Both the position numbers and the translations under genes were made by a program. Positions 11,242 through 25,701 of a DNA stretch of 62,544 nt are shown here, one piece after another. The notes under the pieces were generated by a model. It saw only the letters and a program-made list of their open reading frames with translations, was not told where the DNA came from and ran no database searches. Position 1 is the first letter of the stretch. Every line of letters begins with the position of its first letter. The stretch comes from a virus (lineage: Duplodnaviria; Caudoviricetes). The stretch lies in IMG/VR virus record IMGVR_UViG_3300037502_000756, positions 1 to 62,544 of that record; one strand, given 5' to 3'.

Positions 11242-11263
11242 GAGTGATGAGGTCAGGGGTCTG

Positions 11264-12541: not shown

Positions 12542-12806
12542 ATAACACCTCTGCTTTCTCAAAGGGTGGTTCATCGGACTCAGAAAGTCTGACTTGCCAC
12601 AGCACACCGTCGTTCAAGAACGCTGACACAAACCAGCCGTCGAGAAAGCCAGAGTGTGTCAATGTCGCTTTCCATTGAAACGTAGGGGTGCCATCCGATG
12701 TAACACAAGGCTCATATAAAGCGTACTTCCGTGGACGGAAGTCGTTGACGAGATGCCACTCCCGCCCGGGGCGGAGCCCGGGGACGGGCCCATCAGGCTG
12801 GGACAT
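12525..12806 (-). CDS. Hypothetical protein, tandem paralogue B
   Basis: PGREWH..YALYE..PPF..AE..YDAA. Confidence 0.6.
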   Translation of the reverse strand: MSQPDGPVPGLRPGREWHLVNDFRPRKYALYEPCVTSDGTPTFQWKATLTHSGFLDGWFVSAFLNDGVLWQVRLSESDEPPFEKAEVLYDAAS

Positions 12807-14004
12807 ACAACGTCTCCCCCACCGGGGCGCGGAGCCCCTTGGTGCTGATGCACCACAGCGTCGGGTGCTTGAGGCCAGCAGGCCACGGCGTGAAGCCATC
12901 GGTGAAGACGATCACAGCGTCGGGGTTCAGCCCGCGCCGGTCGATGTAGTCGAACAGGCTGCGCACGTCCGTGCCCCCGCCACCCTTGGGCTTCGTCGCC
13001 TTGGCGATGTCCTGCACCCGCTCGCCCTCGTACACCTCGTGCGCTGCGACAGACGCATCCCAGTAGATCACGTCAACCATCTGCGGGCAGACAGTCTCGC
13101 AGGCACTGGCCACCTCACTGAGGGCTCGACGCAGGGCGTCGTCCCCGATGGACCCGCTGGTGTCGATGCCGATGACGATGCGGTTCACTGCTTCGGTGTA
13201 ACGAGACGGTAGGTAGAGATCCTGCCCGAGCCAGCGGCGTGCGGGCCGCGCCCACGTCGAGAGGTCACCGCCCTTGGCGGTGTTGGTCAGCCACTCACGC
13301 AGCACGTCCTGCCAAGGCACCACAGGCTCAAGGAGTGACGCAACGTCCCGGGACATGCCAGCACCCGTCTTGCCTGCGATCAGCGCCCCTTGGCGCAGCG
13401 CAGTATCAACAGCCTTGGCTACCTCCTCGGCCTCGGCCTCGGTCAGAGGTGCAGGCCCCTCACCCTCGTCACCGTCGCCGTCTCCGACACCCGCAGCGGG
13501 TTGATGCTGGTCGAACTGCTGACCCTTGGGCCCGTTGCCCTGACCCCCGCCGCCTTGCGGCTTGGACTGAGCCTGTTGTTTGAGTCGCTTGTACACCTCA
13601 CCCGTGTCGAGCCCAGCGTACTGCGGATCGCAGTAAGCGTTCTCCCAGATGGTGAGGAACTGCTCGCTTGGGTCCATCGCCTTGAGCATGTTGTTGATCA
13701 CCATGTCTTTGGCAATGTTGGACAGTTGCGAGTCCTCCTTGTCGAGCTTGGCCCAGGTCGTCATGTGCATCAACATGACGTGGAAGTATTCGTGCAAGAT
13801 GACGAAGCGCAACAGCCGGTCGTCGCACTCATCAATAAACTTCCGACCATAAAAGACATCACGGCCATTGGTTGCCGCAGTGGGCATGTCATCGACAACC
13901 TGCCATGAGCCGATCATCAAGATCGGTGAGATGGCGGTGAAGCGCTCGTCGCGCATGATCTTGGCACGGGCTTTGGTGATGCGCTCTTCTGCTGTTAGGT
14001 TCAT
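12793..14004 (-). CDS. DUF2201-type metallopeptidase plus VWA-domain protein
   Basis: TAATNG, HEYFH (HExxH), MIDAS DTSGS, GGGGT, FTDG. Confidence 0.88.
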   Translation of the reverse strand: MNLTAEERITKARAKIMRDERFTAISPILMIGSWQVVDDMPTAATNGRDVFYGRKFIDECDDRLLRFVILHEYFHVMLMHMTTWAKLDKEDSQLSNIAKDMVINNMLKAMDPSEQFLTIWENAYCDPQYAGLDTGEVYKRLKQQAQSKPQGGGGQGNGPKGQQFDQHQPAAGVGDGDGDEGEGPAPLTEAEAEEVAKAVDTALRQGALIAGKTGAGMSRDVASLLEPVVPWQDVLREWLTNTAKGGDLSTWARPARRWLGQDLYLPSRYTEAVNRIVIGIDTSGSIGDDALRRALSEVASACETVCPQMVDVIYWDASVAAHEVYEGERVQDIAKATKPKGGGGTDVRSLFDYIDRRGLNPDAVIVFTDGFTPWPAGLKHPTLWCISTKGLRAPVGETLYVPA

Positions 14005-14058
14005 GTGGTTCTCCTTCGGAGCCCCGGGACTGGCCCGGGGCGGGGTTGTGGTGGGTTG

Positions 14059-15105
14059 TCAGCCCATGATCCAGTTGTTGGCCGTGCACCACTTGGTGAA
14101 TGAGTCGTTCAGGGCTGCGAACTTCGAGCGCTGCGGGATGCGCAGGAACTGGTTGACGAACACGGCTTGAAGCTCCATCGGCAGGCGCTTCATGTAGACC
14201 ATCACCGGGTCGAGCGTGTCCTGCGTCGTGCGGGTGATCGCACGGTGCACCAGCATCATGCACATCGTCGGTGTGTCAGGCACTGGGGCCTGCAGCGGGC
14301 TCGTCACGATGGCGTTCCACGACGGCAGCTTGTTGCCCAGTTGTACGAACACATGCAGATCGGCAGCGGAGCGAGCGCCGATCAGGCCAGCGAGCAGGCC
14401 CCGCATGGTGTCGTCGTCGAGGTGCTCGGCGTCGTTGAGCACGCGACCGGCAGCGGTCATGCTGCGCGGAGAGCAGAAGGCTTTGCGGCTCGGGTCTTTG
14501 CGATGCCAGATGTAGGGGTTCTGATCGGGGTTCGCCACGTCGTCGTCCTCGGCCAGCACCTGGGGCGTCTCCGTCACCCAAGCCAGCACGGCAGGGTTGC
14601 CGTTGTTCGCCAGCGAGTAGTTGATGTACTCCTCGACGTTGGGCTTGCGCATCCTGACCACGGACATGCGGTTGCGGACATGCAAGGGCAGCGTGTCACC
14701 GACGCCCTCGGAACTCAGGTTGGTGGTTGCGAACACGACCGAGCCGGAGGGGAGCGGGCGGGTGCCGACCCGACGATCCAGCACGACGGGCAGGAGTGCG
14801 TTCTGTACTGACCTCGGAGCCTTGCCGAACTCATCCAGGCAGATGACGACAGGCACGTTGTCATGCACACCGAACACTTCGTTGGGATAGAAGGTGCTCG
14901 TCCCCGTGGTGTGGTTCACCGACGGGATCTGGATGTCGCCCACATCGATCTGAGTGCAGTCGATGTAGACCTTGCGGTGCGTCGGCATGTTGAGCATGCC
15001 GAGGATAGAGGACTTGCCCGAGCCCGAAGGCCCCTCGATGAGCACGGTGGTGTGTTGGCCGACAGCGTTGATAGCTGCTGCGCATTGGTTGATGCTGAGT
15101 TTCAT
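14059..15105 (-). CDS. MoxR-like AAA+ ATPase
   Basis: Walker A GPSGSGKS, Walker B CLDE, ATTN, NR arginine finger, SPRS. Confidence 0.88.
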   Translation of the reverse strand: MKLSINQCAAAINAVGQHTTVLIEGPSGSGKSSILGMLNMPTHRKVYIDCTQIDVGDIQIPSVNHTTGTSTFYPNEVFGVHDNVPVVICLDEFGKAPRSVQNALLPVVLDRRVGTRPLPSGSVVFATTNLSSEGVGDTLPLHVRNRMSVVRMRKPNVEEYINYSLANNGNPAVLAWVTETPQVLAEDDDVANPDQNPYIWHRKDPSRKAFCSPRSMTAAGRVLNDAEHLDDDTMRGLLAGLIGARSAADLHVFVQLGNKLPSWNAIVTSPLQAPVPDTPTMCMMLVHRAITRTTQDTLDPVMVYMKRLPMELQAVFVNQFLRIPQRSKFAALNDSFTKWCTANNWIMG

Positions 15106-15156
15106 GATCACTCCTGTTAAACACGTTTATCAATAAAGGGGCCGGAGCCCCGGGGG

Positions 15157-16092
15157 TCACAGCGCGAACTTGTCGAGGATGTCGTCCATCGCACGCTTGG
15201 TGGCGTGCTGTAGTTCGGGGGACTCACGCAGCGAGTCCATGTCCACGCGGGTCAGCGCCCGCTCCAGATCACGCCGCGCTTCCTCAAGGCGCGGGTCGTT
15301 GGTGACGTTGAGATCGCTCAACATCTTGCACAACTCAAGGCCCTGCTCCAACATCGAGTCGTACAGCTTGGGACGGCGGGGCTTCTTGATCTCGACCGAC
15401 ACGACCGTGCCGTTGTCGTCGGTCTTCTTGATCTCCTCCACCCTGTCCGGGTCATAGCTGAGCACGGCCTCCATCCGCTCTCGCACCCACTCGACCTGGG
15501 TCTTCACACGCTGCCACGTGTCCTGCACCGCAGCCTGCACCCGCTCGGTCGTGGCACGCTCGTACTGCTCAGCGAGGTGACGCTGTGCCTCGTGGCCGAT
15601 GTCCACCCGGAAGTCACCCGACGAAGGCAGTGGGCTGAGGGACAGCCCGAAGCGGAACTTCGCACGCACCTCGTCAGCCAGCGGGTACTCGCTGCGGTCG
15701 AACAGCGCACCCATCTCGAAGGCTTGCTTGCTGATGGCCGTGCCGTACACCGACAGGAAGGCTTGCACCAGGGCGTTGAACTTGGACTCGTACTCCGCCG
15801 CTTTGGTCGTCACGTCGAGGTACTGGCGGGTGGTGATGAGCCGTGCACCGTTGTCGTCCCACGGCAGGGTGCGGGAGTTGAACCAGATGCGGGCTTCGCC
15901 CCGCAAGGACTTGATCGCCTCCAGTTCGGGGCACTCCGAGAACAGGTTCTTGGATACCGATGCTGCCTTCTTGCTCTTGGCACCCTTGGAGCCCAGGACT
16001 TCGTCCCGGGTGGTCTTGTCTTGGATCCGCGCTTCCCACACAGATATGTTGAGGGAGCCAAGCATGGCGGCGGTGGTGATGTCGATCTTCAT
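15157..16092 (-). CDS. DUF3150-like helical phage protein
   Basis: TLPW...G.RL, LFDRSEYP...VR.KF, LNVTNDP.L. Adjacent to the AAA/VWA pair. Confidence 0.6.
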   Translation of the reverse strand: MKIDITTAAMLGSLNISVWEARIQDKTTRDEVLGSKGAKSKKAASVSKNLFSECPELEAIKSLRGEARIWFNSRTLPWDDNGARLITTRQYLDVTTKAAEYESKFNALVQAFLSVYGTAISKQAFEMGALFDRSEYPLADEVRAKFRFGLSLSPLPSSGDFRVDIGHEAQRHLAEQYERATTERVQAAVQDTWQRVKTQVEWVRERMEAVLSYDPDRVEEIKKTDDNGTVVSVEIKKPRRPKLYDSMLEQGLELCKMLSDLNVTNDPRLEEARRDLERALTRVDMDSLRESPELQHATKRAMDDILDKFAL

Positions 16093-16134
16093 AGTTTCCT
16101 CTTTCGGGTTGTGGGGGCGGTGCCCCCGGGGTTG

Positions 16135-16767
16135 TCAAACGCGCTTACCGTCTTCGTCAAACTCGTACTCGTTGATGGTGATGGCCTCGTCAACCTGCTC
16201 GTCGGCTAACTGGTACTCATACTCCTGCTCTAGTTGTTTGTAGATCCACCGGGCGAAGTCACGCAACGCCTCGATGATGCCCTCCTCCGCATCCGTCGGC
16301 ACGGGGCAGTATTCATCTTTGGGTTTGTAGACTTGTATCTCCATAGACATCTCGTGGCAGTAGCGACCGGACTGCCTGATATCTGCACCCAGTTGATAGA
16401 ACGCCTGTCGTTGGGCGGCGGCCAGGGCTTTGGCGATGCGGTGGAGTTCTTCGTCCTTCGGGGCGTAGGCTCTGACAGCAGCGACGCTGTCCTTGCGGTG
16501 CTTGTATATACCCTTGAACGATGCCCCGTCGCCCTGGCTCCAGAAGCCCGACCAGTACACGGACGGGCCCCACGATGACGAGCCGTCGGCACGGCGCTTG
16601 CGCTCGCACCGTATATTCAGTCCCATCAGCTCGGCCACGTCGCATGCGTCGTCGATGACGCACTCTGCGTCGAACTCGTAGCGGCTACGCCACCACTCGC
16701 GGGCCTTGGCCTTGGCCTTGTCGCTCAGTTCGTTGAACTGATAAACGGTTGTTGTCATGGTTCTCAT
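16135..16767 (-). CDS. Conserved phage protein (VY.F.ELSD.AK.KA.EW; SGFWSQGDGASF.G; NEYEF.EDG family)
   Basis: Recognisable recurrent family, often loosely annotated as an antitoxin. AAGGAG RBS. Confidence 0.7.
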   Translation of the reverse strand: MRTMTTTVYQFNELSDKAKAKAREWWRSRYEFDAECVIDDACDVAELMGLNIRCERKRRADGSSSWGPSVYWSGFWSQGDGASFKGIYKHRKDSVAAVRAYAPKDEELHRIAKALAAAQRQAFYQLGADIRQSGRYCHEMSMEIQVYKPKDEYCPVPTDAEEGIIEALRDFARWIYKQLEQEYEYQLADEQVDEAITINEYEFDEDGKRV

Positions 16768-16786
16768 TGCTTCTCTCCTTTCAGTT

Positions 16787-16861
16787 TCAGATGATGCCCA
16801 GCATGAGCAGGGCTGCGGCTATGGCGCAGACTGCGAGCAGCAGCTTGTCGTCGGTGGTCAT
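16787..16861 (-). CDS. 24-aa single-TM peptide (MTTDDKLLLAVCAIAAALLMLGII), not in the ORF track
   Basis: Translated by hand. ATGA overlap with the upstream gene and a GAGGA RBS. Confidence 0.5.
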   Translation of the reverse strand: MTTDDKLLLAVCAIAAALLMLGII

Positions 16862-17208
16862 GCAAGTTCCTCAGGGATGTCGATGGTGTCGCCCAGTTTG
16901 CTGGCTACGTAGCAGCGCATGGCTGCGATCAGGGGCGTGGGGCCGACACCCCAGCGCCCGCCTGCGCCCTTTGCGGACAGGCTCGGGCGGGCCTGCCAAA
17001 TAGAGTCCCGCATCGCGGGGATTTCGTGTCTGATGCTGACCTCTTCCCGCTCGATGATCGGGCCGCCGTGCTGCCACAGCACAGACGGTTGAAAGATCAA
17101 ACCGTCATCGAACAGCGGAATGCTCATGTCGTACTCGGGGCCGTACCATACCTTCGCCACCGCCCAGTCAAGGGCAGGGCCGGTGAGGTCTGCGGTTCTG
17201 ATCTTCAT
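16858..17208 (-). CDS. NinX/DUF2591-family protein
   Basis: L.GPALDWAVA...PS..W..GGPIIERE...GPTPLIAAMRCYVASKLGD. Confidence 0.8.
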   Translation of the reverse strand: MKIRTADLTGPALDWAVAKVWYGPEYDMSIPLFDDGLIFQPSVLWQHGGPIIEREEVSIRHEIPAMRDSIWQARPSLSAKGAGGRWGVGPTPLIAAMRCYVASKLGDTIDIPEELA

Positions 17209-17220
17209 TGCTTCTCTCCT

Positions 17221-17544
17221 TCAGCGGACGAACCGCGTGTTGACGTAGTTCTTGAGGACGATCTGCTTGGCCTCGTCTCGTGACCATGCGCGGACGTACA
17301 GGCGTGTGCCCATCGCCGCCGGGGCCGTCGCAGTGTCGGGGTTGAACGCACACCAGAGGTACGGTACGTCTGCGCCGCCGCCCCAGTACGTCCCGTCGGG
17401 TGCGTAGCCACCATCGACGAAGCGCACGCGCTGTAGGCGCAGCACGATGTGCCCGTCGTACTGGTCACTGGCACCGAGCGGTGCCCCGCCACGCTGTAAC
17501 GGGCGTGGGTTCTGCCTGAGTATGCGGTTGATGTCGAGCTTCAT
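17221..17544 (-). CDS. Hypothetical protein (GAP.G...RV....GGY...G.YWG family)
   Basis: Recurrent phage early-gene motif. Confidence 0.65.
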   Translation of the reverse strand: MKLDINRILRQNPRPLQRGGAPLGASDQYDGHIVLRLQRVRFVDGGYAPDGTYWGGGADVPYLWCAFNPDTATAPAAMGTRLYVRAWSRDEAKQIVLKNYVNTRFVR

Positions 17545-17606
17545 GGTCTGTCGCCTTTCTGGCACCGTGGTGCCGGGGTTGTGGGCCTGCGGCCCGGGGA
17601 GACCGC

Positions 17607-17840
17607 TCAGCGGTCGAAGGTGATGAAACACACGGTGCACTCACCGTGTGGGCGGAGTTCGATCATGTCACCATAATCGACGGTGACGGTGCGCTTGCCC
17701 GTCCAACCTACGGCGTGCTTGGCACGTCGCACGATGCTGTACCTCGACAGTGCGTCGGGGGCTTCGAGCGTGGCCCTGCGCACCCAGGAGTAGTTCGGCT
17801 CGTGTCCGAACGTGTCGGTGACTTCGATGTTGATCTTCAT
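17607..17840 (-). CDS. Hypothetical protein (E.TDTFG.E.NYSWVRR family)
   Basis: AAGGAG RBS. Confidence 0.65.
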   Translation of the reverse strand: MKINIEVTDTFGHEPNYSWVRRATLEAPDALSRYSIVRRAKHAVGWTGKRTVTVDYGDMIELRPHGECTVCFITFDR

Positions 17841-17874
17841 GTCAGCTCCTTCCGCCCCCTCTCGGGGGCATCGT

Positions 17875-18096
17875 TTATCGGTAAATCCCACCCTTGTTGT
17901 TGATCCCCCTCGCCGCTTCGCGTGCGAAGTCCGACGTGAAGAACATAGCGCCTTGTTTGTGGGGCGTGAGCACCGTCCAGCCCTTGCGCTCGGCCTTCGC
18001 CTCCTCTTCCCCGCACCACAGGCAGAGCCTGTAGCCGAGCGACACTCGGCGAGGGTCGATGTCGTCCCCGCACCGGGGGCATTCACTGATCTTCAT
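17875..18096 (-). CDS. Zn-finger protein (DksA/TraR C4-like)
   Basis: CPRCGDDI.PRR..LGY..CL.CG. Confidence 0.6.
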   Translation of the reverse strand: MKISECPRCGDDIDPRRVSLGYRLCLWCGEEEAKAERKGWTVLTPHKQGAMFFTSDFAREAARGINNKGGIYR

Positions 18097-18256
18097 CATC
18101 TTCATCATCTTCCTCCATGAAGAACTCATTGGCACGGGCCATGTCGGCCACGTCGTCCTCGCTCATGTACTTCAGGCAAGCCATGATGACCGTGTCGCGG
18201 TCGAGCAAGCCTTCCTCTACCATTTCGAGGACTTTGTCTGTTGTTTGGCGGGTCAT
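18083..18256 (-). CDS. Small highly acidic protein
   Basis: 57 aa, ACL.YMSEDDV.DM...N, tail EEDDEDDEDQ. Confidence 0.65.
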   Translation of the reverse strand: MTRQTTDKVLEMVEEGLLDRDTVIMACLKYMSEDDVADMARANEFFMEEDDEDDEDQ

Positions 18257-18257
18257 G

Positions 18258-18551
18258 TCAGTCCTTCGGACCCGTCGGGCGGGTCGGGTTGTAGACAAAA
18301 TGGGTCTGGCCTTCCTTGGCGGCGGTTGACCGGCTCACCCTGAACGGTGCGCCCAGGGCCTTGAGCACCTCGTTCATATGGCTTGCCGTCGTCACGGTGT
18401 AGTACCCGTGCCAATAAAAAACTACCGCACCATCGGTCTTCACCGCTATGGGGTGCCCGTGCAGCCAGTAGGTCTGCCCATCCGTCGTTGCGTTGTGGCA
18501 GGTGCCGTTGTTCCCGGCGACGAAGGCACGGGCGAGTTCGGGTTTGTTCAT
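18258..18551 (-). CDS. Hypothetical protein (Y.LHG..IA...T.TT..H.N family)
   Basis: ATGA coupling. Confidence 0.65.
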   Translation of the reverse strand: MNKPELARAFVAGNNGTCHNATTDGQTYWLHGHPIAVKTDGAVVFYWHGYYTVTTASHMNEVLKALGAPFRVSRSTAAKEGQTHFVYNPTRPTGPKD

Positions 18552-18787
18552 ACCTTCATTTCCAGTTCACCGTCGTTGTTACGCACGAAATGCGCAGCGG
18601 CCATCTCGTAGGCCAGCGGGTTGTGCGCCCAGTGGAGTTCGATCTCATCCGGGCAGTCTTCGTTACCCTTGATGATGGCCGAGCGGCACTCGGTCAGTGC
18701 CTTGCCAGGGCACGGGGGCATCGCACGCAGATGCGTTCTGAAAAGCCAAGCCATGTCACATGGCTTGTTGATAAATGTGTCAGCCAT
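18548..18787 (-). CDS. Hypothetical protein (WL..THL...GNEDCP)
   Basis: AGGAG RBS. Confidence 0.6.
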   Translation of the reverse strand: MADTFINKPCDMAWLFRTHLRAMPPCPGKALTECRSAIIKGNEDCPDEIELHWAHNPLAYEMAAAHFVRNNDGELEMKV

Positions 18788-18835
18788 TGTCGCTCCTATG
18801 TTTACCAGTAAACAAGCCCCCTCGGGGGCACGGGG

Positions 18836-19165
18836 TCAGGTGAAATACCGTCCGACGATGGCGGTGTCCTCGGCACCCCAGCGGAACACCACGCCGCTGA
18901 AGTACGTCTCGCTCACGATCATGTGCCAGCTCGCCAGGGGCGAAGTCTCGGCCACGACCATCGCCCACCCCATCGGGTGGCGGGCTTCGCGGGTGACGAA
19001 TTGTGCGTCGAGCACGTCGTACCACACACCCTTGTACTGCACGAACCGGGCGGTGTAGTCGCCGTCCTTGGCGACGTAGTCGAAGTCGGCCCGCACCTTC
19101 TCCGGGAGGTCGAGCAGGCACGCCAGCGGGCGTGGGTGGTTGTTGGTAATGATGTTCATGTTCAT
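18836..19165 (-). CDS. Hypothetical protein (ITNNHPR...F..YKG.WYD...SET.FSG family)
   Basis: Recurrent phage family. Confidence 0.65.
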   Translation of the reverse strand: MNMNIITNNHPRPLACLLDLPEKVRADFDYVAKDGDYTARFVQYKGVWYDVLDAQFVTREARHPMGWAMVVAETSPLASWHMIVSETYFSGVVFRWGAEDTAIVGRYFT

Positions 19166-19221
19166 CTCACTCTCTGGTGATACCCCCGTAGGGGCGGGTT
19201 GTGGGCACGTCAGTGCCCGGT

Positions 19222-19485
19222 TCACTCCCACCAGTCGCCGCCAGCGACGTCGGGCCTGCACTGCACCCCGATCATGCGAGCCAGTTCGCCCCGCGCTTGG
19301 GCGCGGATCTTCTCGGGTTCATCCCACACCGAGGGACTGAACCTCCATGCGCCAAGCCTGCCCGATTGGCCAAGCTCGACCGATACGTTCCCGTATCGGT
19401 CTTCGACCACCTTCATGGTGATCCCCGGGGGCACGGGGCTGAGAAGCCCCTGCACGTACCCGGCACGCTGTCCCTTCGCTACCAT
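19222..19485 (-). CDS. Hypothetical protein
   Basis: GGAGG RBS, directly follows the DUF1874 gene. Confidence 0.5.
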   Translation of the reverse strand: MVAKGQRAGYVQGLLSPVPPGITMKVVEDRYGNVSVELGQSGRLGAWRFSPSVWDEPEKIRAQARGELARMIGVQCRPDVAGGDWWE

Positions 19486-19486
19486 C

Positions 19487-19774
19487 TCACACCTCCACAC
19501 GAACCCAATCGAACCCGAACCCCTCGGGCAGGGTCACGCAACCCTCGGGCAGGCGCCCACCGCGCAACTGAGCGACGTACAGCACGTCTCCGGGCTGCAA
19601 GGTCACGCTGATGCGTGCCATGGGCACGCCGAGCACGGCTGCAGTGTCGGCATGGCCGACGCAGCTCACCAAGCCCTCGCGCGAGGGCTCACCGCACGCC
19701 GACAGGCGCACGAAGGCCAGCAGGTGCCTCGGCACCATGCCCAGGGAAAACGCGTTTCCAATATAGGTAGTCAC
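19487..19774 (-). CDS. acrIII-1: DUF1874 / AcrIII-1-like viral ring nuclease (anti-type III CRISPR)
   Basis: 95 aa from a GTG start with a GGAG RBS. Family motifs in order: YIGNAFSLGM, SCVGHADTA (catalytic GH), RISVTL.PGD.LYV.Q, RLPEG. Confidence 0.8.
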   Translation of the reverse strand: MTTYIGNAFSLGMVPRHLLAFVRLSACGEPSREGLVSCVGHADTAAVLGVPMARISVTLQPGDVLYVAQLRGGRLPEGCVTLPEGFGFDWVRVEV

Positions 19775-20374
19775 AAAACTCTCCGGTTTTCGCAGCACAT
19801 GCTGCCTAGAGCGCTCGTTGCACCGGCTCCGCAGGGCGTGCACCGTGCGGATGATTTGCGCGAAGCGCTCTAGGCAGGGGGCAGAACCCCCTGCGATGTT
19901 GCGACTACGGTCTCGCCCCACGCTTTCGCGTTGTGCTGATTAGGCACGCGGGATCCCCGCTCATGTCGTCGCTATTTGTTGTCGGTTGACGTTTAGGTAT
20001 CGTCAACAACCTGCACAGAGTCTTTCCTCTGCGGCCTACGCGCCAATCGGATTCTTACCGTCGGTCACGTCGAGGAACTGAACTTCACCCCGTTTGTTCT
20101 GCCGTAGGCAGGTGTGTCGGGCTAGATCAGTATCTTGCCAGCGCGTTTATTGGTAAACGCGCAAAACCCCGGCCAATAGTGCGTTACACGCAGCGCTACC
20201 TGCGTGTTCGGCACCGACGCCGGTACTGACAAAAGCTGTCGATCAGTGGACATCGCATGTGACCGTATATCACACACGAAGCCAGACAGGCGGCGTAAGC
20301 CGCTAAAGAGCATTGCGTTTACTGGTAAACGCACCGGGTTAGCCCGGTGTCAGCAGGTTGATCTCCCACCGACA
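19775..20374 (-). ncRNA. Candidate ~600-nt structured leader / ncRNA
   Basis: More than 15 stems. G-U pairs and a GAAA tetraloop work on the minus strand. Lies between a consensus promoter and the first gene, with no credible ORF. Confidence 0.65.
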
Positions 20375-20379
20375 AATAC

Positions 20380-20408
20380 ATTGTAACACAATGTGTCCTT
20401 TATGTCAA
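20380..20408 (-). promoter_or_regulatory. Strong sigma70 early promoter TTGACA-N17-TACAAT
   Basis: Perfect -35, 17-nt spacer, 5/6 match at -10. Confidence 0.85.
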
Positions 20409-20433
20409 GTCAATGGCGTTGTCAAGGGGTCTG

Positions 20434-21411
20434 TTAGGCACGGGTCTTCGGCCTCGACCTAGCACCCTTCGGTCTTCCACCCTTTGCACGCTGCCTCAAC
20501 GGCTCCACATTGTGAGTGTCACACCACGCCAACCAGCGCTTCCCGAAGTCGTCAGACAATGTCGCCTGATCTGCAAGTCCTTCGATCAAACGCGAAGCCA
20601 AAGTAGACATAAGCATGATGTTCCCCGCCTCGAAGGGCTTGGTCGTGTCCAACCTCCCGATCCTCGCTACGGCACCCTTGGCACCCTCTACACCACCCGC
20701 CACGTCGAACCTGTCGTAACTCAACGGCAGACCCAACACTATGCACGCTTCGGGGTACAAGCGTTGCCCTCGGTATGAGATCAGTGCATCGACGGGCTCG
20801 AACTTCCCATACGCCTTCACTGTACCTGGGCGGGAATACGTGTCGGTAAGATATGCACTGGCACGGGCTTGACTCACTGCCCACCGCAGGTGCTTCCAAC
20901 GTTCGTCCTCCTTGTACTCCTGCGAGACCTTCGCCTTGACCGGGGCTGGCGGCTCACACCCCCTGCGCACCATGCTGACACTCACGTCGAACAGCTTGGC
21001 CACCGCCTCCACGATGTTGCGCATGCTCTCGGCACCGTACTTTGCACGGAGCTTTTCCACCATCGCCTCCATGGCGCGAGCACGGACCTTGACCATGCTC
21101 TTCTTTGAGAACGACCGTTCTTCGACAGTCATCCTGTCGGTGTACATATCAGCCTCGCTGGTCCTCTGCGCCTCTTCAAACCTGACATCCCTTGGCGATG
21201 CTTCGGGCTCGATGTGCTGCGCAAGTGCGAGCGCTTTCATGTTCTCTTCATTTGCGGCGAAACGGTAGTTCAAAAAGTACCACCCGCTGTACTTTGGCAC
21301 GGGCTTGTGCCAGACCGCGGTACTGTTGTTTTCGTTGGGACGGAAGACGGGCCTGCCCGCGCTGTCGAGGTAGGTGGTCGTGAAGATCTTGTGAAGGAAG
21401 GCGTACTCCAT
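20434..21411 (-). CDS. Hypothetical protein with HTH-like segment and degenerate HNH-like C-terminus
   Basis: VAKLFDVSVSMVRR. C.VLG.PL...RIGRLDTTKPFEAGNIMLMS..AS resembles the SIDRID..KGY..GN...IS..AN pattern. Confidence 0.55.
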   Translation of the reverse strand: MEYAFLHKIFTTTYLDSAGRPVFRPNENNSTAVWHKPVPKYSGWYFLNYRFAANEENMKALALAQHIEPEASPRDVRFEEAQRTSEADMYTDRMTVEERSFSKKSMVKVRARAMEAMVEKLRAKYGAESMRNIVEAVAKLFDVSVSMVRRGCEPPAPVKAKVSQEYKEDERWKHLRWAVSQARASAYLTDTYSRPGTVKAYGKFEPVDALISYRGQRLYPEACIVLGLPLSYDRFDVAGGVEGAKGAVARIGRLDTTKPFEAGNIMLMSTLASRLIEGLADQATLSDDFGKRWLAWCDTHNVEPLRQRAKGGRPKGARSRPKTRA

Positions 21412-21570
21412 GAGGGGCTCCGGGGGTTGGCACCGCGCAGGCGGCAGACGCACCCCGACGAAGTCGGGGGCAGGTCGTATTATAGCGAAATTCTTGCGGC
21501 GTGTTGGTAATGTGGGCCTGCTTCCTATAAACGCGTTTAGCCAGTAAGGAAACGTTCTAGATAACAGGGG

Positions 21571-21921
21571 TGGATGTTCCTGGATGTTCCAGTTTTTTGG
21601 GATGCTGCAAGTCGTTGTCAGGGCTCAGGATCGGCGTTTTTGACGGTACGGGGTTGTAATTGGGGAAATTAATATGCGGTTTGGAGGGTCCGTGAATCAT
21701 CTGTAATTTGAAATCAAAAATAATTGGTGGGACTTTTGCGATGACGAAATAAAAACACAATAAAAATTCTAAAAACATAGGGTTACTACTACTCTAGGAA
21801 TAATGTTAGTTTTCTCTATTATAAGGAACATTGGAACACGGAGCCCCCGCCCCTGCCAAATCAACGACTTACGCGGTGCCAAAAAAACTAAATAATCGGA
21901 ACACGCCGGAACTTTGGAACA
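21571..21921. other. Candidate replication origin
   Basis: AT-rich core flanked by imperfect inverted arms, oppositely oriented GGAACA/TGTTCC hexamers, and an IHF-consensus site AATCAACGACTTA at 21859-21871. Confidence 0.6.
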
Positions 21922-22075
21922 CGGGCTCGCCCACTGCCGTTTACCAGTAAACGCCGCTCGCGTGCTGCCAGGGAACGGGTGTCAGCGCAGAGCGCTGCGT
22001 CCTCGATGGGTCGGCTGCGTTTACCAGTAAACGCGGTTCGCTACGTGCAATCCGTCCGCGCAGTGTGTGCGTGGG

Positions 22076-22125
22076 CTCGCGTGCCGCTTGTGTCCTCGCG
22101 TGCCGCTTGTGTCCTCGCGTGCCGC
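22076..22125. repeat. 19-bp tandem repeat CTCGCGTGCCGCTTGTGTC, about 2.6 copies
   Basis: Units at 22076, 22095 and a partial unit at 22114. Further CTCGCGT copies lie nearby. Confidence 0.85.
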
Positions 22126-22185
22126 CCTGGGTGCCGTGCGTGCTCGCGTACTCGCGTGCTTTTGACACCCGGTCCTTGCGGACAC

Positions 22186-22245
22186 AAAAAAACCCGCAGG
22201 GCGTGAACCCTGCGGGCACAAAAAAGCCCCGACTTTCGTCGGGGC
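22186..22245 (-). terminator. Two back-to-back intrinsic terminators
   Basis: Minus strand GCCCCGAC-GAAA-GTCGGGGC-T6, then CCCGCAGGG-loop-CCCTGCGGG-T7. Confidence 0.88.
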
Positions 22246-22250
22246 TGGTG

Positions 22251-22460
22251 TCAATCGCGGGTCAACTCTAGCACAAGGGATCCAATTTCATCTGCCAGTA
22301 GATACCAACGTTCAATTCTCCGCGCTACTTCCCGAGGGTCGACCGTATCTTGTGTCGTTTGTGTTTCCTTCAAAGCTTCGAAGGCTTTTAGTTCCGCAAA
22401 TTCCCTAGCCGCAAATATCGCAGTCTCAAGCTTGATTTGATTCGAGGTTTTCAACTTCAT
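22251..22460 (-). CDS. Hypothetical early protein
   Basis: GGAG RBS, lies between a palindrome and the terminators. Confidence 0.55.
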   Translation of the reverse strand: MKLKTSNQIKLETAIFAAREFAELKAFEALKETQTTQDTVDPREVARRIERWYLLADEIGSLVLELTRD

Positions 22461-22505
22461 GATGCGCTCCAAAGAATGCCCCGGCCTAGGCCGGGGCAAG
22501 TGTTA

Positions 22506-23069
22506 TTAGGCCTTGTTCCTTTCGATCAAGGCGAGTATTTTCTGCGCACTATCACGGCAAGCCGTGATGTCATCCAGGGTCCAGGACTTCAAGCCCTGGA
22601 CATTGGCGCACAGTGCGACAAGCGCCAGCTTCCATCCTTGCGGGGTGTTGAGCGACACCCCGTCATTTGTCGCTTTGTCAGTCTTTTCCTTAGCTTTGCG
22701 GCCCGTGTCGCTAAGGCTCGGGAATTCCTCGGGAAACTTTTTGAAAAGTCCGGCCGGGGCGGGAAACCCCGCCCCGCCTTCATCTTCGCAGGCTTCAAGA
22801 GCTTTCCGGGCATCGGCGGCCTTCGCGGCCAGGATGCGCTTCGCGTTAGATGCGTAGCTGGCGCCGTTTGTGAGCGCCGCCAATTCCTTGCCCAGAGCCT
22901 CACCCTCGGCCTTCGCCGTTTCCGTACCCATTGCGGCGAGCCGCAACACTGCAGCAGTGAACCTCTTGCTGAAACCATCCATCTTACCCTTCGCCGCAAT
23001 CGCGCCGGTAGCTGCAGCTACCGCTGCAGCCCGCAGTTCTGCGGGGGTCTTAGGGGTCTTGATAGCCAT
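22506..23069 (-). CDS. Ala/Lys-rich hypothetical early protein
   Basis: GAGG RBS, 187 aa, has its own promoter. Confidence 0.7.
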   Translation of the reverse strand: MAIKTPKTPAELRAAAVAAATGAIAAKGKMDGFSKRFTAAVLRLAAMGTETAKAEGEALGKELAALTNGASYASNAKRILAAKAADARKALEACEDEGGAGFPAPAGLFKKFPEEFPSLSDTGRKAKEKTDKATNDGVSLNTPQGWKLALVALCANVQGLKSWTLDDITACRDSAQKILALIERNKA

Positions 23070-23119
23070 GATATTACCTCTATCGGGTTACATCGCATCG
23101 GGATTGTTGCGATGGATGA

Positions 23120-23163
23120 ACTATAGCACTTCCACAATTCCCGTCAACATCTTTACCGGTAAA
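23120..23163 (-). promoter_or_regulatory. sigma70 promoter TTGACG-N16-(TGn)TATAGT with adjacent palindrome TTTACCGGTAAA
   Basis: Extended -10. The palindrome at 23152-23163 lies 4 nt upstream of the -35. Confidence 0.7.
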
Positions 23164-23238
23164 CCAGACCCACCGTCCCCCCACCCCCCGCTGTGGCTTT
23201 GGAGTCCCGCCCGCTCGCTACGCTGTATTCGACACCCA

Positions 23239-23337
23239 CGATGACCACGCTAAAAACGGCGACGCACTTTAAGAACGACATAACGGCGATGACCACGCTA
23301 AAAACGGCGACGCACTTTAAAAGTTACATAACGGCGA
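23239..23337. repeat. 48-bp tandem duplication
   Basis: 23239-23286 versus 23287-23334, differing only in a 5-nt patch. AACGGCGA occurs four times. Confidence 0.9.
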
Positions 23338-23435
23338 CACAATAAAAGTACCCCCGGGGGGCACTAAATCCCCAGTGCCCAGACGAAGTCCGCTATAGGA
23401 AACACCCCCCGTCGATGGTACCTAAAGTACCCGCC

Positions 23436-23503
23436 GTGCTATGGAACCAAAATGGACAGCGAAGCGGCCTGTGCTATGGAACCAAAATGGGTAGCGAAGC
23501 GGC
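23436..23503. repeat. 33-bp tandem duplication (period 35)
   Basis: GTGCTATGGAACCAAAATGG(AC/GT)AGCGAAGCGGC twice. Confidence 0.9.
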
Positions 23504-23506
23504 AGG

Positions 23507-23536
23507 TTGACACGAAGACCGCCCGTGCGGTACAGT
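23507..23536 (+). promoter_or_regulatory. Candidate promoter TTGACA-N18-TACAGT for the packaging/structural arm
   Basis: Perfect -35 immediately after the tandem repeat. Confidence 0.5.
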
Positions 23537-23559
23537 AGTTTTACGCCCAGGTGCGGCGC

Positions 23560-24171
23560 ATGGAAGCCACCATGATCGAAGCTGAAGTCGAAGACTTCGT
23601 CCCATTGCCTACGGGCGGAGGTTCCCGGAGCCTGTCGTACAACGAACTGAGGGCCCGTGCCCAGGCAGCGTGCAACACCGCTGGGATCTTGATTGCCGAA
23701 GGGTACGAAGACGAGCCGCCTGACCCGGACGAGGTGCGCAAAGCCGCTCGAAACACGCTGCGTGCGGCCAACAGGACTGATCCCGTGCCGAAGGAAGCCA
23801 GCGCCGCGCTGGAGACCCCGGAGGGTGCCTATCACGTCAATGCGATCCTGACCCAGTACGACATGGATGTGGTGCGCGATGCCAAGCGCCTGCGCCACTA
23901 CGTGACCAATAGGCTGGTCTTGGAGACTGAGAACCCAGACCCCCGCATCAGGATGAAGGCCCTTGAGTTGCTCGGGAAGGTCAGCGACGTGGGTCTGTTC
24001 ACCGAGCGCACCGAGATCACCGTCAACAACCGCTCGACAGTCGATCTTGAGAACTCCCTGCGCGACAAGTTGCGCAGGCTCATGGGTACTGGGGACGCCG
24101 AGGAGGCGGTCGTGCTGGCTCCGCCCATCGACCTTGTGACGCCCATTGATGTGAACGCCGTTTTGGGTTGA
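23560..24171 (+). CDS. terS: Putative terminase small subunit
   Basis: Directly precedes TerL. R.KALELLGK...VGLF.E motif. Confidence 0.7.
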   Translation: MEATMIEAEVEDFVPLPTGGGSRSLSYNELRARAQAACNTAGILIAEGYEDEPPDPDEVRKAARNTLRAANRTDPVPKEASAALETPEGAYHVNAILTQYDMDVVRDAKRLRHYVTNRLVLETENPDPRIRMKALELLGKVSDVGLFTERTEITVNNRSTVDLENSLRDKLRRLMGTGDAEEAVVLAPPIDLVTPIDVNAVLG

Positions 24172-24174
24172 CAT

Positions 24175-25701
24175 GTGTTGACCGACGCCGAACTCCAGTT
24201 CGCCTTGGCGAACATCAACAAGCTGACAACCACTGAGCAGGAACGGTTATTGGCGGTGCTAGAAGAGTTGGAGCGGCGAAAGTACGCAAAACGGTGCCAA
24301 GACGACCTGCTGACCTTCTGTCAGCACATGGACCCGACGTATATCGTCGCGGCTCATCATAAAAGACTAGCGGAGCTGTTGACAAACATAGCCTATGGCC
24401 TTAAAGACCGCATCGCGGTGTCAATTCCCCCTCGACACGGTAAGTCCCATCTCATCAGCACGTTGTTTCCAGCGTGGTTTTTGGGCAAATTCCCTAATAA
24501 GAAGGTGCTGATGGTCTCGCACACCGGCGATCTCGCCGTCGATTTTGGTCGAAAAGTGCGAAATATCATTGCAGACCCCCGCTATAAGTCCGTTTTCCCC
24601 GCCATTACCCTTGCACAAGACTCAAAAAGTGCTGGAAGGTGGTCAACTAACGCTGGTGGTGAGTATTTTGCCACTGGTGTCGGTGCCGCCCTCGCTGGTC
24701 GCGGTGCTGACCTGCTTTTAGTCGATGATCCGCACTCAGAACAAGACCTTTTGGCGGGAAATTTTGAGGAATTAGAGAAGACCTATCAATGGTTCGCTTT
24801 TGGCGCAAGAACTCGCCTCATGTCAGGGGGCAGAATCGCCGTTGTTCACACCCGCTGGCACCAGGATGACCTCATCGGACACTTAATCAAGGACGGTGCC
24901 AACAATCCCAAGGCAGATCAGTACGAAGTTTTTGAATTCCCCGCCATTCTTGACACCAATTCAGGGCCAAAAGCCCTCTGGCCGGAAAAGTTTGATCTTG
25001 ACGCCCTGGAGCGCACCAAAGCGTCTATGCCGCTGTTCCAGTGGAACGCGCAATATATGCAGAACCCGACAGGGGAGCAGGGTGCAATCATTCAACGGGA
25101 CTGGTGGAAGCCTTGGAAGCAAGAGAACCCACCGCAGTGCGACTTCATCATCATGACGCTGGACGCAGCGGCAGAGAAAAGCACCCGTGCTGACTTCACG
25201 TCGCTCTTGACTTGGGGCATTTTCAGCGATGACAATCTCACCAATGGTGAGCCGCACATCATCCTCATGAACGCTATCAACGTGCGCGTCGAGTTTCCCG
25301 AGTTGAAAGACCTCGCCATCCGCGAGTATCACGAGTGGGAGCCGGAAGCGTTCATCGTTGAGAAGAAGTCCAGTGGCACGCCCCTGTACCAAGAGTTGCG
25401 CCGCATGGGCATCCCCGTGCAAGAATTCACGCCTCACCGTGGCACCGGGGACAAGGTTGCTCGCCTGAGCGCCGTAGCTGACATCATCCGCAGCGGCATG
25501 GTATGGTACCCCGAGGGGCGACGGTGGGCTGAAGAGGTGATTGAGCAGTGCGTAGCGTTCCCGTTCGGCTCCCACGACGACATGGTTGACTGTACCTCGA
25601 TGGCTCTTGCACGCTTCCGTCAAGGGGGCTTTATCAGCCTGTCCTCCGACCTGCGAGACCCTGACATTTTCAACCGCCCACGCCGTGTGGCGTACTACTG
25701 A
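24175..25701 (+). CDS. terL: Terminase large subunit
   Basis: Walker A PPRHGKS, Walker B LLLVDD, TRWH.DDL.G, RNase H-fold LDAA / VEKKSSG / HDDMVD. Confidence 0.95.
   Translation: MLTDAELQFALANINKLTTTEQERLLAVLEELERRKYAKRCQDDLLTFCQHMDPTYIVAAHHKRLAELLTNIAYGLKDRIAVSIPPRHGKSHLISTLFPAWFLGKFPNKKVLMVSHTGDLAVDFGRKVRNIIADPRYKSVFPAITLAQDSKSAGRWSTNAGGEYFATGVGAALAGRGADLLLVDDPHSEQDLLAGNFEELEKTYQWFAFGARTRLMSGGRIAVVHTRWHQDDLIGHLIKDGANNPKADQYEVFEFPAILDTNSGPKALWPEKFDLDALERTKASMPLFQWNAQYMQNPTGEQGAIIQRDWWKPWKQENPPQCDFIIMTLDAAAEKSTRADFTSLLTWGIFSDDNLTNGEPHIILMNAINVRVEFPELKDLAIREYHEWEPEAFIVEKKSSGTPLYQELRRMGIPVQEFTPHRGTGDKVARLSAVADIIRSGMVWYPEGRRWAEEVIEQCVAFPFGSHDDMVDCTSMALARFRQGGFISLSSDLRDPDIFNRPRRVAYY

Follow-up and report, generated by a model that had tools for sequence, protein, structure and literature searches.

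What purpose might about 600 nt of gene-free DNA serve at the head of a phage early operon? The question is raised by the minus strand of a 62,544-nucleotide stretch of viral DNA (Duplodnaviria; Caudoviricetes; positions 1 to 62,544 of IMG/VR record IMGVR_UViG_3300037502_000756; hereafter 'the window'), in which a promoter and the first gene downstream of it are separated by a region that an earlier note, made from the letters alone, had described as densely folded and non-coding. The two features that bound the region are:

20380..20408, minus strand: sigma-70 promoter (−35 element TTGACA at 20408-20403; 17-nt spacer; −10 element TACAAT at 20385-20380)
19487-19774, minus strand: DUF1874-like gene (GTG start at 19774-19772; Shine-Dalgarno sequence GGAGAG at 19784-19779)

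Promoter, gene-free stretch and first gene

The promoter proposed in the earlier note (TTGACA-N17-TACAAT) proves to be the best-scoring of seven promoter-like sites in 9000-24500, with matches at 11 of 12 positions and, in its spacer, a TG element just before the −10 element. The pattern CTTGACATAA...TA(C/T)A(A/C)T is kept in all relatives for which upstream DNA is covered, and in all of these the promoter sits 171-415 nt upstream of the conserved core formed by helices Pa and Pb (listed below). From the promoter position, transcription is predicted to start at about 20373 on the minus strand. A Pfam search of 37 large ORFs revealed no phage RNA polymerase; host sigma-70 RNA polymerase would transcribe the leader from this near-consensus promoter.

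The absence of a credible ORF from the ~600 nt was likewise confirmed: no ORF is conserved, the largest ORF in 19775-20379 has 70 aa (20122-20334, GTG start) and no Pfam hit, and the 5'-domain lengths in relatives (125, 127, 130, 145, 153, 160, 175, 182 and 247 nt) differ by amounts that are not multiples of three. The genome is less tightly packed elsewhere than had been thought, with a second gene-free stretch, of ~800 nt, at 21454-22250.

The DUF1874-like gene matches Pfam PF08960 at E 4.8e-4 (20.6 bits, under the cut-off of 26) and PDB 2x4i at E 0.0023. Only the window and the relatives L018 and L029 have DUF1874 as the first gene behind the leader; L012 has it ~490 nt farther downstream, with two other ORFs in between, and in the remaining relatives at least seven unrelated genes take the first place. 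Since relatives vary in this way, the tie to a DUF1874/anti-CRISPR gene that had been drawn for this locus is incidental. For the 339-aa protein encoded upstream, a protein-based locus search in viral contigs gave no confirmed locus, and comparison of its structure model (mean pLDDT 76.7) with PDB gave no match at E <= 0.001 and weak HNH-domain matches at E > 1.

Relatives, helices and covariation

Pattern scans found the leader element in 10 viral and 12 metagenome contigs (22 related loci), which together with the window make 23 entries and 20 distinct sequences; three further candidates (L016, L020 and L022) matched one 17-base pattern only, do not align, and were dropped as chance matches. 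The carriers are a group of uncultured, mostly freshwater phages, and the leader is known from this one phage group only. Its length is ~600 nt in the window and ranges from about 440 to 650 nt among relatives, which differ by large insertions and deletions in a modular architecture. No match to the leader region was found by blastn in 50,697 phage records, and the core pattern had no match among 185,579 prokaryote species, each represented by one genome. When 77 other viral loci with a boxA were searched with a covariance model of the core, none gave a hit at E <= 1; applied to the window and 10 related loci, the model gave a single hit in each of the 10 core-bearing sources and none in L037, and the core occurs in one copy per genome.

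The window and seven relatives were searched against Rfam 15 (4227 families), with both gathering and E-value thresholds applied. No riboswitch, ribozyme or other family matched at the leader: in 19400-20600, searched at E <= 10, nothing reached the gathering threshold, the best match being mir-1251 (16.5 bits, E 1.9) and the next AdoCbl-II (14.1 bits, E 9.2, threshold 36.5), and in the seven relatives nothing matched at the leader at E <= 1. The sole hit in the window at a gathering threshold was abiF, at 32604-32639. A DUF1874 RNA motif lies upstream of DUF1874 genes, and the window leader resembles it in preceding a DUF1874-like gene; the Rfam 15 null applies to this motif only if it is among the 4227 families, and the leader described here is no less conserved in front of genes that have no relation to DUF1874.

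The elements of the leader, in the order of transcription, are:

20348..20374, minus strand: P1, a 5' hairpin UGUCGGUGGG/CCUGCUGACA, with conserved 5' strand and loop GGUGGGAGAUC
20334..20347, minus strand: P1b, hairpin CCGGG-CUAA-CCCGG, in long-form relatives only (7 sequences)
20314..20333, minus strand: hairpin in the boxB position, in the window one copy of a palindrome, GCGUUUAC-CA-GUAAACGC, ending 2 nt before boxA
20304..20312, minus strand: boxA UGCUCUUUA, the same 9 nt as in the rrn boxA of E. coli
20224..20303, minus strand: window-specific insertion with extra hairpins (GCGGC-UUAC-GCCGC, UGUGAU/GUCACA and others)
20169..20223, minus strand: P2 domain, CCGGC/GCCGG around an inner hairpin, which in the window is ACACGCAG/CUGCGUGU
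20130..20162, minus strand: P3, hairpin GCGCGUUUA-CCAA-UAAACGCGC, with conserved top UUACCNRUAA
20035..20075, minus strand: core helix Pa, CCUCGACGUGACCGACGG-UAAGAAU-CCGAUUGGCGCGUAGG
20014..20033, minus strand: core helix Pb, CGCAGAG-GAAAGA-CUCUGUG, with a purine-rich loop, 1 nt after Pa
19985..20007, minus strand: Pc, hairpin GUUGACG-AUACCUAAA-CGUCAAC, with conserved loop ACCURAA
19901..19972, minus strand: multiloop GCGAC...GUCGC with three small hairpins, including ACGC-GAAA-GCGU, common to the L014/L018 group only
19874..19894, minus strand: G5/C5 hairpin GCAGGGGG-UUCUG-CCCCCUGC, 96.7% paired and mostly invariant
19806..19873, minus strand: long stem CUAGAGCGCUU/GAGCGCUCUAG, pairing 19873-19863 with 19816-19806 and enclosing a variable insert
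19792..19805, minus strand: terminal hairpin GCAGC-AUGU-GCUGC, whose stem never varies

In at least ten helices, pairing survives sequence change by way of compensatory and G-U substitutions. In the 5' domain, the 3' strand of P1 varies by G-U/G-C/U-A changes (helices 1-2, 72-79% paired), with a shorter version in short-form relatives; P1b (helix 3) has 4/5 pairs altered on both sides and 94.3% of cells paired; helix 4 of P2 is 98.6% paired, and helices 5-6 are altered on both sides; and P3 (helix 7), which is followed by a conserved linker UG(A/G)CAAGAUAC, has 7/9 pairs altered on both sides and is 95.6% paired. The insertion at 20224..20303 is missing from the other 17 5'-domain sequences.

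The Pa-Pb core, 62 nt in two hairpins, is nearly invariant, with conserved loops and linker (UAAGARW, GGAAAGA, AGGCC). Pa (14 pairs, with C-G/U-A/U-G, G-U/G-C and A-U/G-U variation) and Pb (7 pairs, with G-U/A-U/G-C and G-C/A-U variation) are each 100% paired, Pa in 15 distinct sequences, and 50 of the 109 window positions in the core alignment are invariant. Pc (core alignment helix 3) has 3/7 pairs altered on both sides, and is only 74.3% paired overall because the group of L023, L031, L032 and L035 has a different hairpin at this position; downstream of Pc, at 19984-19972, runs a C/A-rich single strand.

In the 3' domain, the L023 group has a nested hairpin within the loop of the G5/C5 hairpin; the long stem (helix 2) has 7/11 pairs altered on both sides, is 95.2% paired, and reaches 14 bp through CUGC/GCAG of the flanking hairpins; and the loop of the terminal hairpin contains an inserted helix in three relatives. 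The invariant hairpin GCAGCAUGUGCUGC lies 177-341 nt downstream of the core, the exceptions being L036, with two loop changes, and L032, with a variant 5' arm and loop.

All hairpins that had been picked out in the window by inspection are present, including an exact 14-bp complement (19877-19864/19815-19802), and in the ACGC-GAAA-GCGU hairpin the loop reads GAGA in the L014 group, so that a GNRA loop is retained. One proposed pairing has to be replaced: in the junction read as GCCUACG/CGUAGGC, the 5' partner is GCCUGUG or GCCAGCG in relatives, with CGUAGGC unchanged, and the partner of GCGUAGG that covariation supports is CCUCGACGU, in helix Pa. Two pseudoknots between a loop and a single strand, checked by eye, Pc loop/GUUCAG and P1 loop AGAUCA/UGAUCU, are not kept across relatives, and ARAGORN detected no tRNA or tmRNA mimicry in the window.

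The checks on folding and covariation that the earlier note had called for both came out in favour of structure. The minus-strand RNA 19775-20375 has a minimum free energy (MFE) of −274.6 kcal/mol (z −9.05; 0/20 shuffles as good), compared with z −5.26 for the plus strand of the same region and z −2.97 for a coding control, the 601 nt just downstream (1/20 shuffles as good); the 420-nt leader of one relative has z −5.95 (0/100 shuffles as good). With shuffles that ignore phylogeny, structures derived from the same sequences that are tested, and low effective diversity (Infernal effective number 1.27 for the core), the covariation score is 0.195 for the core (20 sequences, 15 distinct; the 21 pairs of Pa and Pb 100% paired) vs. 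0.136 +/- 0.012 for shuffles, 0.395 vs. 0.215 for the 3' domain (15 sequences; 95.8% paired) and 0.300 vs. 0.157 for the 5' domain (18 sequences; 14/35 pairs altered on both sides), and in each case 0 of 500 shuffles reach it; core helices in slid registers score at most 0.095. Paired cells in the alignments comprise 117 G-U vs. 12 A-C, and minority cells in the 73 pair columns in which a Watson-Crick pair is commonest comprise 41 G-U vs. 10 A-C: that is, the changes fit the transcribed strand only, as expected from the proposal that selection acts on RNA. We conclude that the gene-free ~600 nt is a real, conserved, heavily folded, strand-specific leader RNA that opens a phage early operon.

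The boxA signal and a proposed Nus-factor antitermination leader

An rrn-type boxA is a binding site for NusB/NusE, through which bacteria keep their ribosomal RNA transcripts from terminating too early. In the leader family, an rrn-type boxA, GCUCUUUAACAA, starts 33-88 nt after the −10 region, about 35-90 nt into the predicted transcript, and a hairpin ends 0-3 nt upstream of it in 18/18 distinct leaders. The sequence GYTCTTTAANA, given as the gamma-proteobacterial boxA consensus in bioRxiv 10.1101/091223, is matched exactly in 15/18 distinct 5' domains, with the proviso that a gamma-proteobacterial consensus may not be that of the host; L014 and L030 have one mismatch each to the 11-nt consensus, and the window, with GCTCTTTAGCG, has mismatches at consensus positions 9 and 11. 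The window's 19-mer begins UGCUCUUUAGCGG... and the bases after its boxA are GCGG, vs. GCUCUUUAACAAU as boxA and AACAA after it in relatives. The rrn boxA quoted in PMC2724277 equals the window's UGCUCUUUA, which is also read in the E. coli rrnA leader, and the GCTCTTTAACAATTCATCA of L013 matches E. coli rrnA at 18/19 positions.

The boxA call rests on the family rather than on the window, because a 12-mer search of the window alone, allowing up to 3 mismatches, gave 30 matches vs. 28.5 expected by chance, and because the window has two mismatches to the 11-mer. Since boxA is invariant, covariation gives no test of it. Part of its conservation could reflect another cause, e.g., pairing with purine-rich Shine-Dalgarno sequences; the window MFE structure does pair GCUCUUU with GGAGAGU, a pairing that we regard as uninformative, given that any purine-rich ribosome-binding site complements CUCUUU. 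A search of the same 185,579 prokaryote genomes (one per species) with the 19-mer boxA and spacer of L013 gave six scattered matches in unrelated taxa, which are thus of no use for inferring the host. Beyond the leader family, at least 115 viral contigs contain TTGACA-N17-TANNNT followed within 25-55 nt by GCTCTTTAACAA, and none of the 78 promoter-boxA matches examined (77 viral loci) has a 16S start within 1.5 kb downstream.

The arrangement resembles that of the rrn leader antiterminator in its boxA (UGCUCUUUA in the window, GCUCUUUAACAAU in relatives), preceding hairpin, nearby strong sigma-70 promoter, long untranslated structured RNA after boxA, and long stem like the RNase III sites of pre-rRNA. 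It differs in being phage-borne, in that protein-coding early genes follow, not rRNA, in a promoter discriminator unlike that of rrn P1, and in a window boxA that diverges after position 9. Inspection of the aligned 5' domains by eye brought out no conserved GU-rich element resembling boxC; boxB and boxC of rrn leaders are reported to be dispensable for function. The order of elements in rrn leaders, as described in PMC2724277, is boxB then boxA. The lambda nutL/N leader has the same layout, from early promoter to boxA to large structured untranslated leader to first early gene, and the purine-rich loop GAAAGA of Pb, on a G-C stem, recalls the boxB sequence agcccugaaaaagggc (PMC2724277, Table 1). 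However, lambda boxA is CGCUCUUA and the phage leader has the rrn form (CUUUA); in lambda nut the boxB hairpin follows boxA, whereas here a hairpin precedes it and the nearest purine-loop hairpin, Pb, lies 150-350 nt downstream, which is not a lambda-type nut arrangement; and the window phage is not lambdoid, having a family A DNA polymerase, a SNF2 helicase and direct terminal repeats.

Judged from these sequence features, the reading that we favour, with a probability of roughly 0.55, is that the leader is a Nus-factor antitermination leader that would protect the early operon, as well as the long untranslated structured RNA ahead of it, against Rho. According to this hypothesis, soon after initiation the nascent RNA would fold a hairpin with the rrn-type boxA UGCUCUUUA... 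directly after it; boxA would bind host NusB-NusE(S10), as in rRNA operons and lambda nut sites; with NusA and NusG, the polymerase would turn processive and Rho-resistant; and the modified polymerase would cross the next 400-550 nt of untranslated RNA, which is the type of RNA that needs such protection from Rho, and then enter the early genes. The rest of the leader would comprise P2, P3, the Pa-Pb core, Pc, the G5/C5 hairpin, the long covarying stem, and the invariant terminal hairpin before the ribosome-binding site. The Pa-Pb core would most likely bind a further protein; the long stem, a candidate RNase III site, would be a processing site of RNase III type, and the terminal hairpin would protect the 5' end of the mRNA.

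The earlier note's general idea, a large non-coding RNA or cis-acting leader with a role in antitermination, thus stands as the best reading, but its more specific suggestion of a put-like element gives way to a signal that is an rrn-type boxA. Antitermination of rrn type acts on Rho-dependent, not intrinsic, terminators, as stated in PMC2724277; it would not explain read-through at the hairpin-plus-U sites found at about 11241-11170, downstream in the same transcription direction. The need for ~400 nt of conserved folded RNA after boxA is also not accounted for by antitermination.

Other readings of the leader, and significance

That ~400 nt is the starting point of the strongest alternative, which we consider unlikely: that the RNA after boxA is itself the product, released from the transcript as a stable non-coding species by cutting at the long stem. 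It would then act in trans, for example by sequestering a host defence or RNA-binding protein as a decoy or sponge does, and boxA would serve only its synthesis, as for rRNA. This alternative is compatible with a Nus-factor antitermination leader, and boxA elements are known, from PMC2724277 and PMC10250234, to serve untranslated RNAs such as rRNA. It would fit the conserved loops and linker of the 62-nt, single-copy core with its 50/109 invariant positions, the position of the long covarying stem and then the invariant hairpin just before the ribosome-binding site, and the loop motif GGAAAGAC, which recurs in a second hairpin in the group of L023, L031, L032 and L035 and, as a repeated sequence, suggests a repeated protein-binding site. 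However, the RNA has no terminator or other defined 3' end and is contiguous with the mRNA in every relative, and its modular architecture looks like a string of hairpins rather than one compact fold. It shares with GOLLD, ROOL and other large bacterial non-coding RNAs a length of hundreds of nt, many covarying helices and a phage context, and differs from them in giving no Rfam match and in being a modular 5' leader, contiguous with mRNA, with large insertions and deletions. A fuller and equally tentative version, in our view improbable as it stands, would make the ~400 nt after boxA a class of large functional phage RNA that is produced in the manner of rRNA, with a strong promoter and the Nus complex shielding it from Rho and chaperoning its folding, is released by RNase III at the long stem, and disables a host defence or RNA-handling protein through the Pa-Pb core and repeated GGAAAGAC loops during takeover of the host.

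Considerably less probable is that the Pa-Pb core is a put-like element that binds RNA polymerase directly and confers factor-free terminator resistance, like putL and putR of HK022, whose target is the beta-prime zinc-binding domain. Put RNAs, as described in PMC9378689, are ~70 nt long, consist of two stem-loops, lie just after or ~270 nt after early promoters, and act on terminators more than 10 kb away. Pa and Pb together measure 62 nt, are two stem-loops 1 nt apart and lie 171-415 nt after a promoter, with hairpin-plus-U sites downstream in the same direction, and in both cases a phage with no recognised antiterminator protein has a cis-acting RNA behind an early promoter. This likeness, of two adjacent stem-loops of ~60-70 nt, is generic and one of architecture alone; put acts without Nus factors, whereas the phage leader is many times larger and has a boxA, which points to the Nus route.

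A riboswitch, or a ligand or protein sensor controlling translation or stability of the first (anti-defence) gene, is very unlikely. A conserved structure does lie upstream of the ribosome-binding site, and GCAG/CUGC repeats would permit either two flanking hairpins or the 14-bp extended stem. However, no Rfam aptamer matches (AdoCbl-II, at the score given above, is the best), no U-tract terminator-type expression platform precedes the first gene, no pairing with the ribosome-binding site, which differs between relatives, is conserved, and the leader stays constant while the first gene changes.

Least probable of all is a signal in DNA, i.e., palindromic operators for a phage regulator or a transcription-activated replication origin: GTTTAC-NN-GTAAAC occurs at five sites where one strand or both match exactly and at three more with one mismatch (0.24 matches expected), seven of the eight lying between early-region genes in either orientation, two of them inside the leader, and one adjoining the −35 element of a promoter at 23147 (the eighth site, at 1560, overlaps the end of a helicase ORF), but A-C pairs are far rarer than G-U pairs in the helices, P3 shows covariation in its outer stems as their sequence changes, most helices are not palindromes of this type, and operators could coexist with RNA structure and would explain only two hairpins.

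The leader adds a well-supported structured RNA family that Rfam lacks, represented by 20 distinct sequences and showing compensatory changes in at least ten helices, in a size class, ~440-650 nt, to which few known bacterial or phage RNAs belong, and its invariant Pa-Pb core offers pull-down and structural studies a definite object. The sequences suggest a non-lambdoid lytic phage that drives its early operon by means of a host rRNA-type boxA. The survey indicates that many viral contigs, at least 115, have a promoter followed by an rrn-type boxA, which would make hijacking of Nus factors a general phage strategy.

Genome setting of the leader

The leader lies on the minus strand of a complete 62,544-bp virus record whose ends are direct terminal repeats; minus-strand genes from ~23,400 to 1 form the early/replication side, and structural genes are on the plus strand. 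Pfam families in the window include family A DNA polymerase, SNF2 helicase, PD-(D/E)XK nuclease, DUF927 primase-like protein, terminase and capsid protein, and no RNA polymerase was found by Pfam among 37 large ORFs. By DNA polymerase, the closest isolates are Rhizobium phage RHph_TM3_14A and Pseudomonas phage KPP25, with only 31-36% identity. The elements and neighbours of the leader are:

20434-21453, minus: gene for a 339-aa protein
20408-20380, minus: predicted sigma-70 promoter
20304-20312, minus: predicted boxA
20014-20075, minus: 62-nt two-hairpin core, helices Pa and Pb
19985-20007, minus: helix Pc
19873-19863 with 19816-19806, minus: long stem
19792-19805, minus: terminal hairpin
19487-19774, minus: DUF1874-like gene, 95 codons, a weak DUF1874 relative

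The promoter is exactly where the earlier note had placed it (TTGACA at 20408-20403, a 17-nt spacer with TG, TACAAT at 20385-20380, minus strand), and it ranks first of the seven promoter-like sites within 9000-24500. The claim that the region lacks a credible ORF holds up: between the promoter and the GTG at 19774, the longest ORF is 70 aa, without a Pfam match. So does the claim of dense folding, with a predicted energy for the minus-strand RNA of -274.6 kcal/mol (z -9.05 vs. shuffles); z is -5.26 for the plus strand of the region and -2.97 for a coding control, the 601 nt just downstream.

Several other non-coding features were observed in the window. A second gene-free stretch, of ~800 nt (21454-22250), contains two strong minus-strand terminators (22246-22225 and 22217-22192), a 19-nt direct repeat in 2.6 copies (22076-22125), an A+T-rich portion (~21560-21900) and two copies of the palindrome CGTTTAC-YR-GTAAACG, and may be an origin or control region. 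The palindrome occurs at five sites with an exact match on at least one strand and at three with one mismatch (0.24 matches expected). Seven 14-bp sites, in either orientation, lie in early-gene spacers (17873, 18800, 20145, 20317, 21939, 22019 and 23151), and the eighth, at 1560 with one mismatch, overlaps the end of the helicase ORF. Two copies are hairpins of the leader, one abuts the -35 element of a promoter at 23147, and copies in three related loci (L025, L033 and L036) immediately precede a gene start. This palindrome may act as an operator bound by a phage regulator, or it may be an RNA hairpin that recurs. The spacer separating the leftward and rightward gene blocks carries a 48-nt tandem repeat (2.1 copies, 92% matches, 23239-23337). 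The major capsid gene (31681-32592) precedes an abiF RNA motif (RF03085; 32604-32639, plus strand; 44.6 bits vs. a gathering score of 37), and a GIY-YIG endonuclease gene (32814-33560) follows it.

Relatives of the leader and their gene context

The leader region had no blastn match in phage records. Used as an exact pattern, an 18-base palindrome taken from the leader matched one 61-kb viral contig, and alignment with this contig showed strong but patchy conservation. Two patterns from the best-conserved block yielded 10 related viral contigs (three further contigs, matching one pattern only, were rejected as chance matches), and a looser pattern yielded 12 metagenome contigs. The resulting set, including the window, comprises 23 entries and 20 distinct leaders, all carried by one phage group; the core pattern was absent from 185,579 prokaryote species, represented by one genome each.

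In relatives, a homologue of the 339-aa protein (24-91% identity) is invariably encoded immediately ahead of the leader promoter. The protein has a conserved C-terminal motif, RCPVLG..L.YDR...GR.D...GN..LMS, and no Pfam or PHROG family; a PDB search with its AlphaFold model (mean pLDDT 76.7) gave nothing at E <= 0.001 and, above that, weak HNH-domain rows only. In the tandem-terminator region upstream of its gene, L012 (1286-1367) and L025 (813-896) have sub-threshold Rfam matches to Burkholderia sRNAs (anti-hemB; 26.6-27.7 bits vs. 49.5), which probably reflect terminator likeness and are at most a faint hint of host.

Downstream of the leader, relatives keep conserved early genes in the window's order and differ in the first one to four genes. 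The first gene is DUF1874-like in the window and in L018 and L029 and is another small ORF elsewhere; in L012 a DUF1874 gene is ~490 nt further downstream. The window's gene matches PF08960 with E 4.8e-4 and 20.6 bits, under the cut-off of 26, and phrog_5063 (function unknown) with E 7.8e-9; among PDB chains it matches 2x4i (E 0.0023), 2j6b (0.029) and 6scf (0.093; an AcrIII-1 ring nuclease), with a shared GH motif. The tie that the earlier note drew between the leader and a DUF1874 anti-CRISPR gene is thus incidental: the first genes differ among relatives, and therefore the leader belongs to the promoter and operon, not to DUF1874.

Covariation and strand specificity

The 5' domain, core and 3' domain were aligned separately with MAFFT, without use of structure. 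In the core alignment (20 of 23 entries, three exact duplicates having been dropped; 15 distinct rows), RNAalifold gives two neighbouring helices, Pa and Pb, with zero broken pairs in any sequence, pairs being preserved through C-G to U-A or U-G, G-U to G-C and A-U to G-U changes; a purine-rich loop of the core is repeated in one subgroup of relatives. Where Pc is present, its pairing survives changes on both sides. In the 3'-domain alignment (15 of the 18 sequences reaching both ends; near-duplicates L015, L027 and L028 left out), 7 of the 11 long-stem pairs are changed on both sides, with 95.2% paired. In the 5'-domain alignment (18 sequences; L033 and L035 lack this domain as their contigs end), the same holds for 7 of the 9 pairs of helix P3, and helices P1b, P2 and P2a likewise covary. 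The covariation score was reached by 0 of 500 shuffles in each of the three parts, the shuffles ignoring relatedness and the tested structures deriving from the same sequences, and slid registers scored far lower. The sequences are only modestly diverse (effective sequence number 1.27, core model).

The hairpins listed in the earlier note are all present in the sequence, but its GCCUACG/CGUAGGC junction is contradicted by relatives, in which GCCUACG becomes GCCUGUG or GCCAGCG against an unchanged CGUAGGC partner; what relatives preserve is a local hairpin, UGCC-NNN-GGCA. Its proposal of strand specificity is borne out: paired cells comprise 117 G-U vs. 12 A-C, and, for the 73 columns whose most frequent pair is Watson-Crick, minority cells comprise 41 G-U vs. 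10 A-C. The G-U excess shows that the structure belongs to RNA of the promoter's strand. We conclude that the leader is a real, conserved, strand-specific structured RNA and a new family. No description of it was found in literature, partly abstracts, on put RNA, phage structured RNAs and boxA elements; PMC9378689 has a supplementary alignment of put RNAs that may be relevant to the comparison with put.

A predicted boxA and proposed Nus-factor antitermination

The most conserved single-stranded stretch in the 5' domain, GCUCUUUAACAAU, fits several published boxA forms, including the gamma-proteobacterial consensus GYTCTTTAANA (bioRxiv 10.1101/091223), and matches the E. coli rrnA leader, which reads TGCTCTTTAACAATTTATCAG two bases past the boxB hairpin. 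The 11-mer is exact in 15 of 18 distinct leaders. A single mismatch is seen in L014 and in L030, and the window has UGCUCUUUAGCGG, with the first nine bases kept; NusB-NusE is reported to recognise 8 nt of boxA (PMC3177189). All 18 leaders have a predicted hairpin whose end lies 0-3 nt upstream of boxA, the same order, hairpin then boxA, as in rrn leaders. The window has no second GCTCTTTA copy in a comparable setting, and, taken without the family, its degenerate match could not be told apart from chance. As read from sequence, the sole recognisable functional element of the leader is this predicted rrn-type boxA.

In at least 115 viral contigs, an exact rrn-type boxA, GCTCTTTAACAA, comes 25-55 nt after TTGACA-N17-TANNNT, and these loci (L045-L121 and further) show several recurring flank types. 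The 78 matches examined, in 77 of the loci, included no case with a 16S start in the following 1.5 kb and no case with the leader core by pattern or covariance model. This distribution indicates that predicted boxA use is widespread among phages and that the large structured RNA is confined to this phage group.

Of the functions that the earlier note suggested for the leader, antitermination stands as the best-supported reading, but the signal recognised is an rrn-type boxA, not put. According to this well-motivated reading, nascent boxA would recruit NusB-NusE(S10), and host polymerase, once modified, would resist Rho, as Nus factors are reported able to bring about without N (bioRxiv 10.1101/091223), and would go on through 400-550 nt of untranslated RNA and then the early genes. 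Pre-rRNA and the lambda N leader suggest, as analogues, that the long stem and invariant terminal hairpin may be a processing and stabilising module, and the invariant Pa-Pb core is taken to be a putative protein-binding element.

The tandem terminators noted near 11174-11241 are recognisable by eye as two successive hairpins with U-runs at ~11170-11241 (minus strand), between two early-side genes, and are absent from the list of a simple terminator scan; further hairpin-plus-U sites are at 18829-18816 and 15151-15138. The reported targets of rrn-type antitermination are Rho-dependent sites (PMC2724277), so read-through of intrinsic terminators is left unexplained. Nus-factor antitermination would supply a reason for a long untranslated stretch behind a strong promoter, and would suit a phage dependent on host polymerase.
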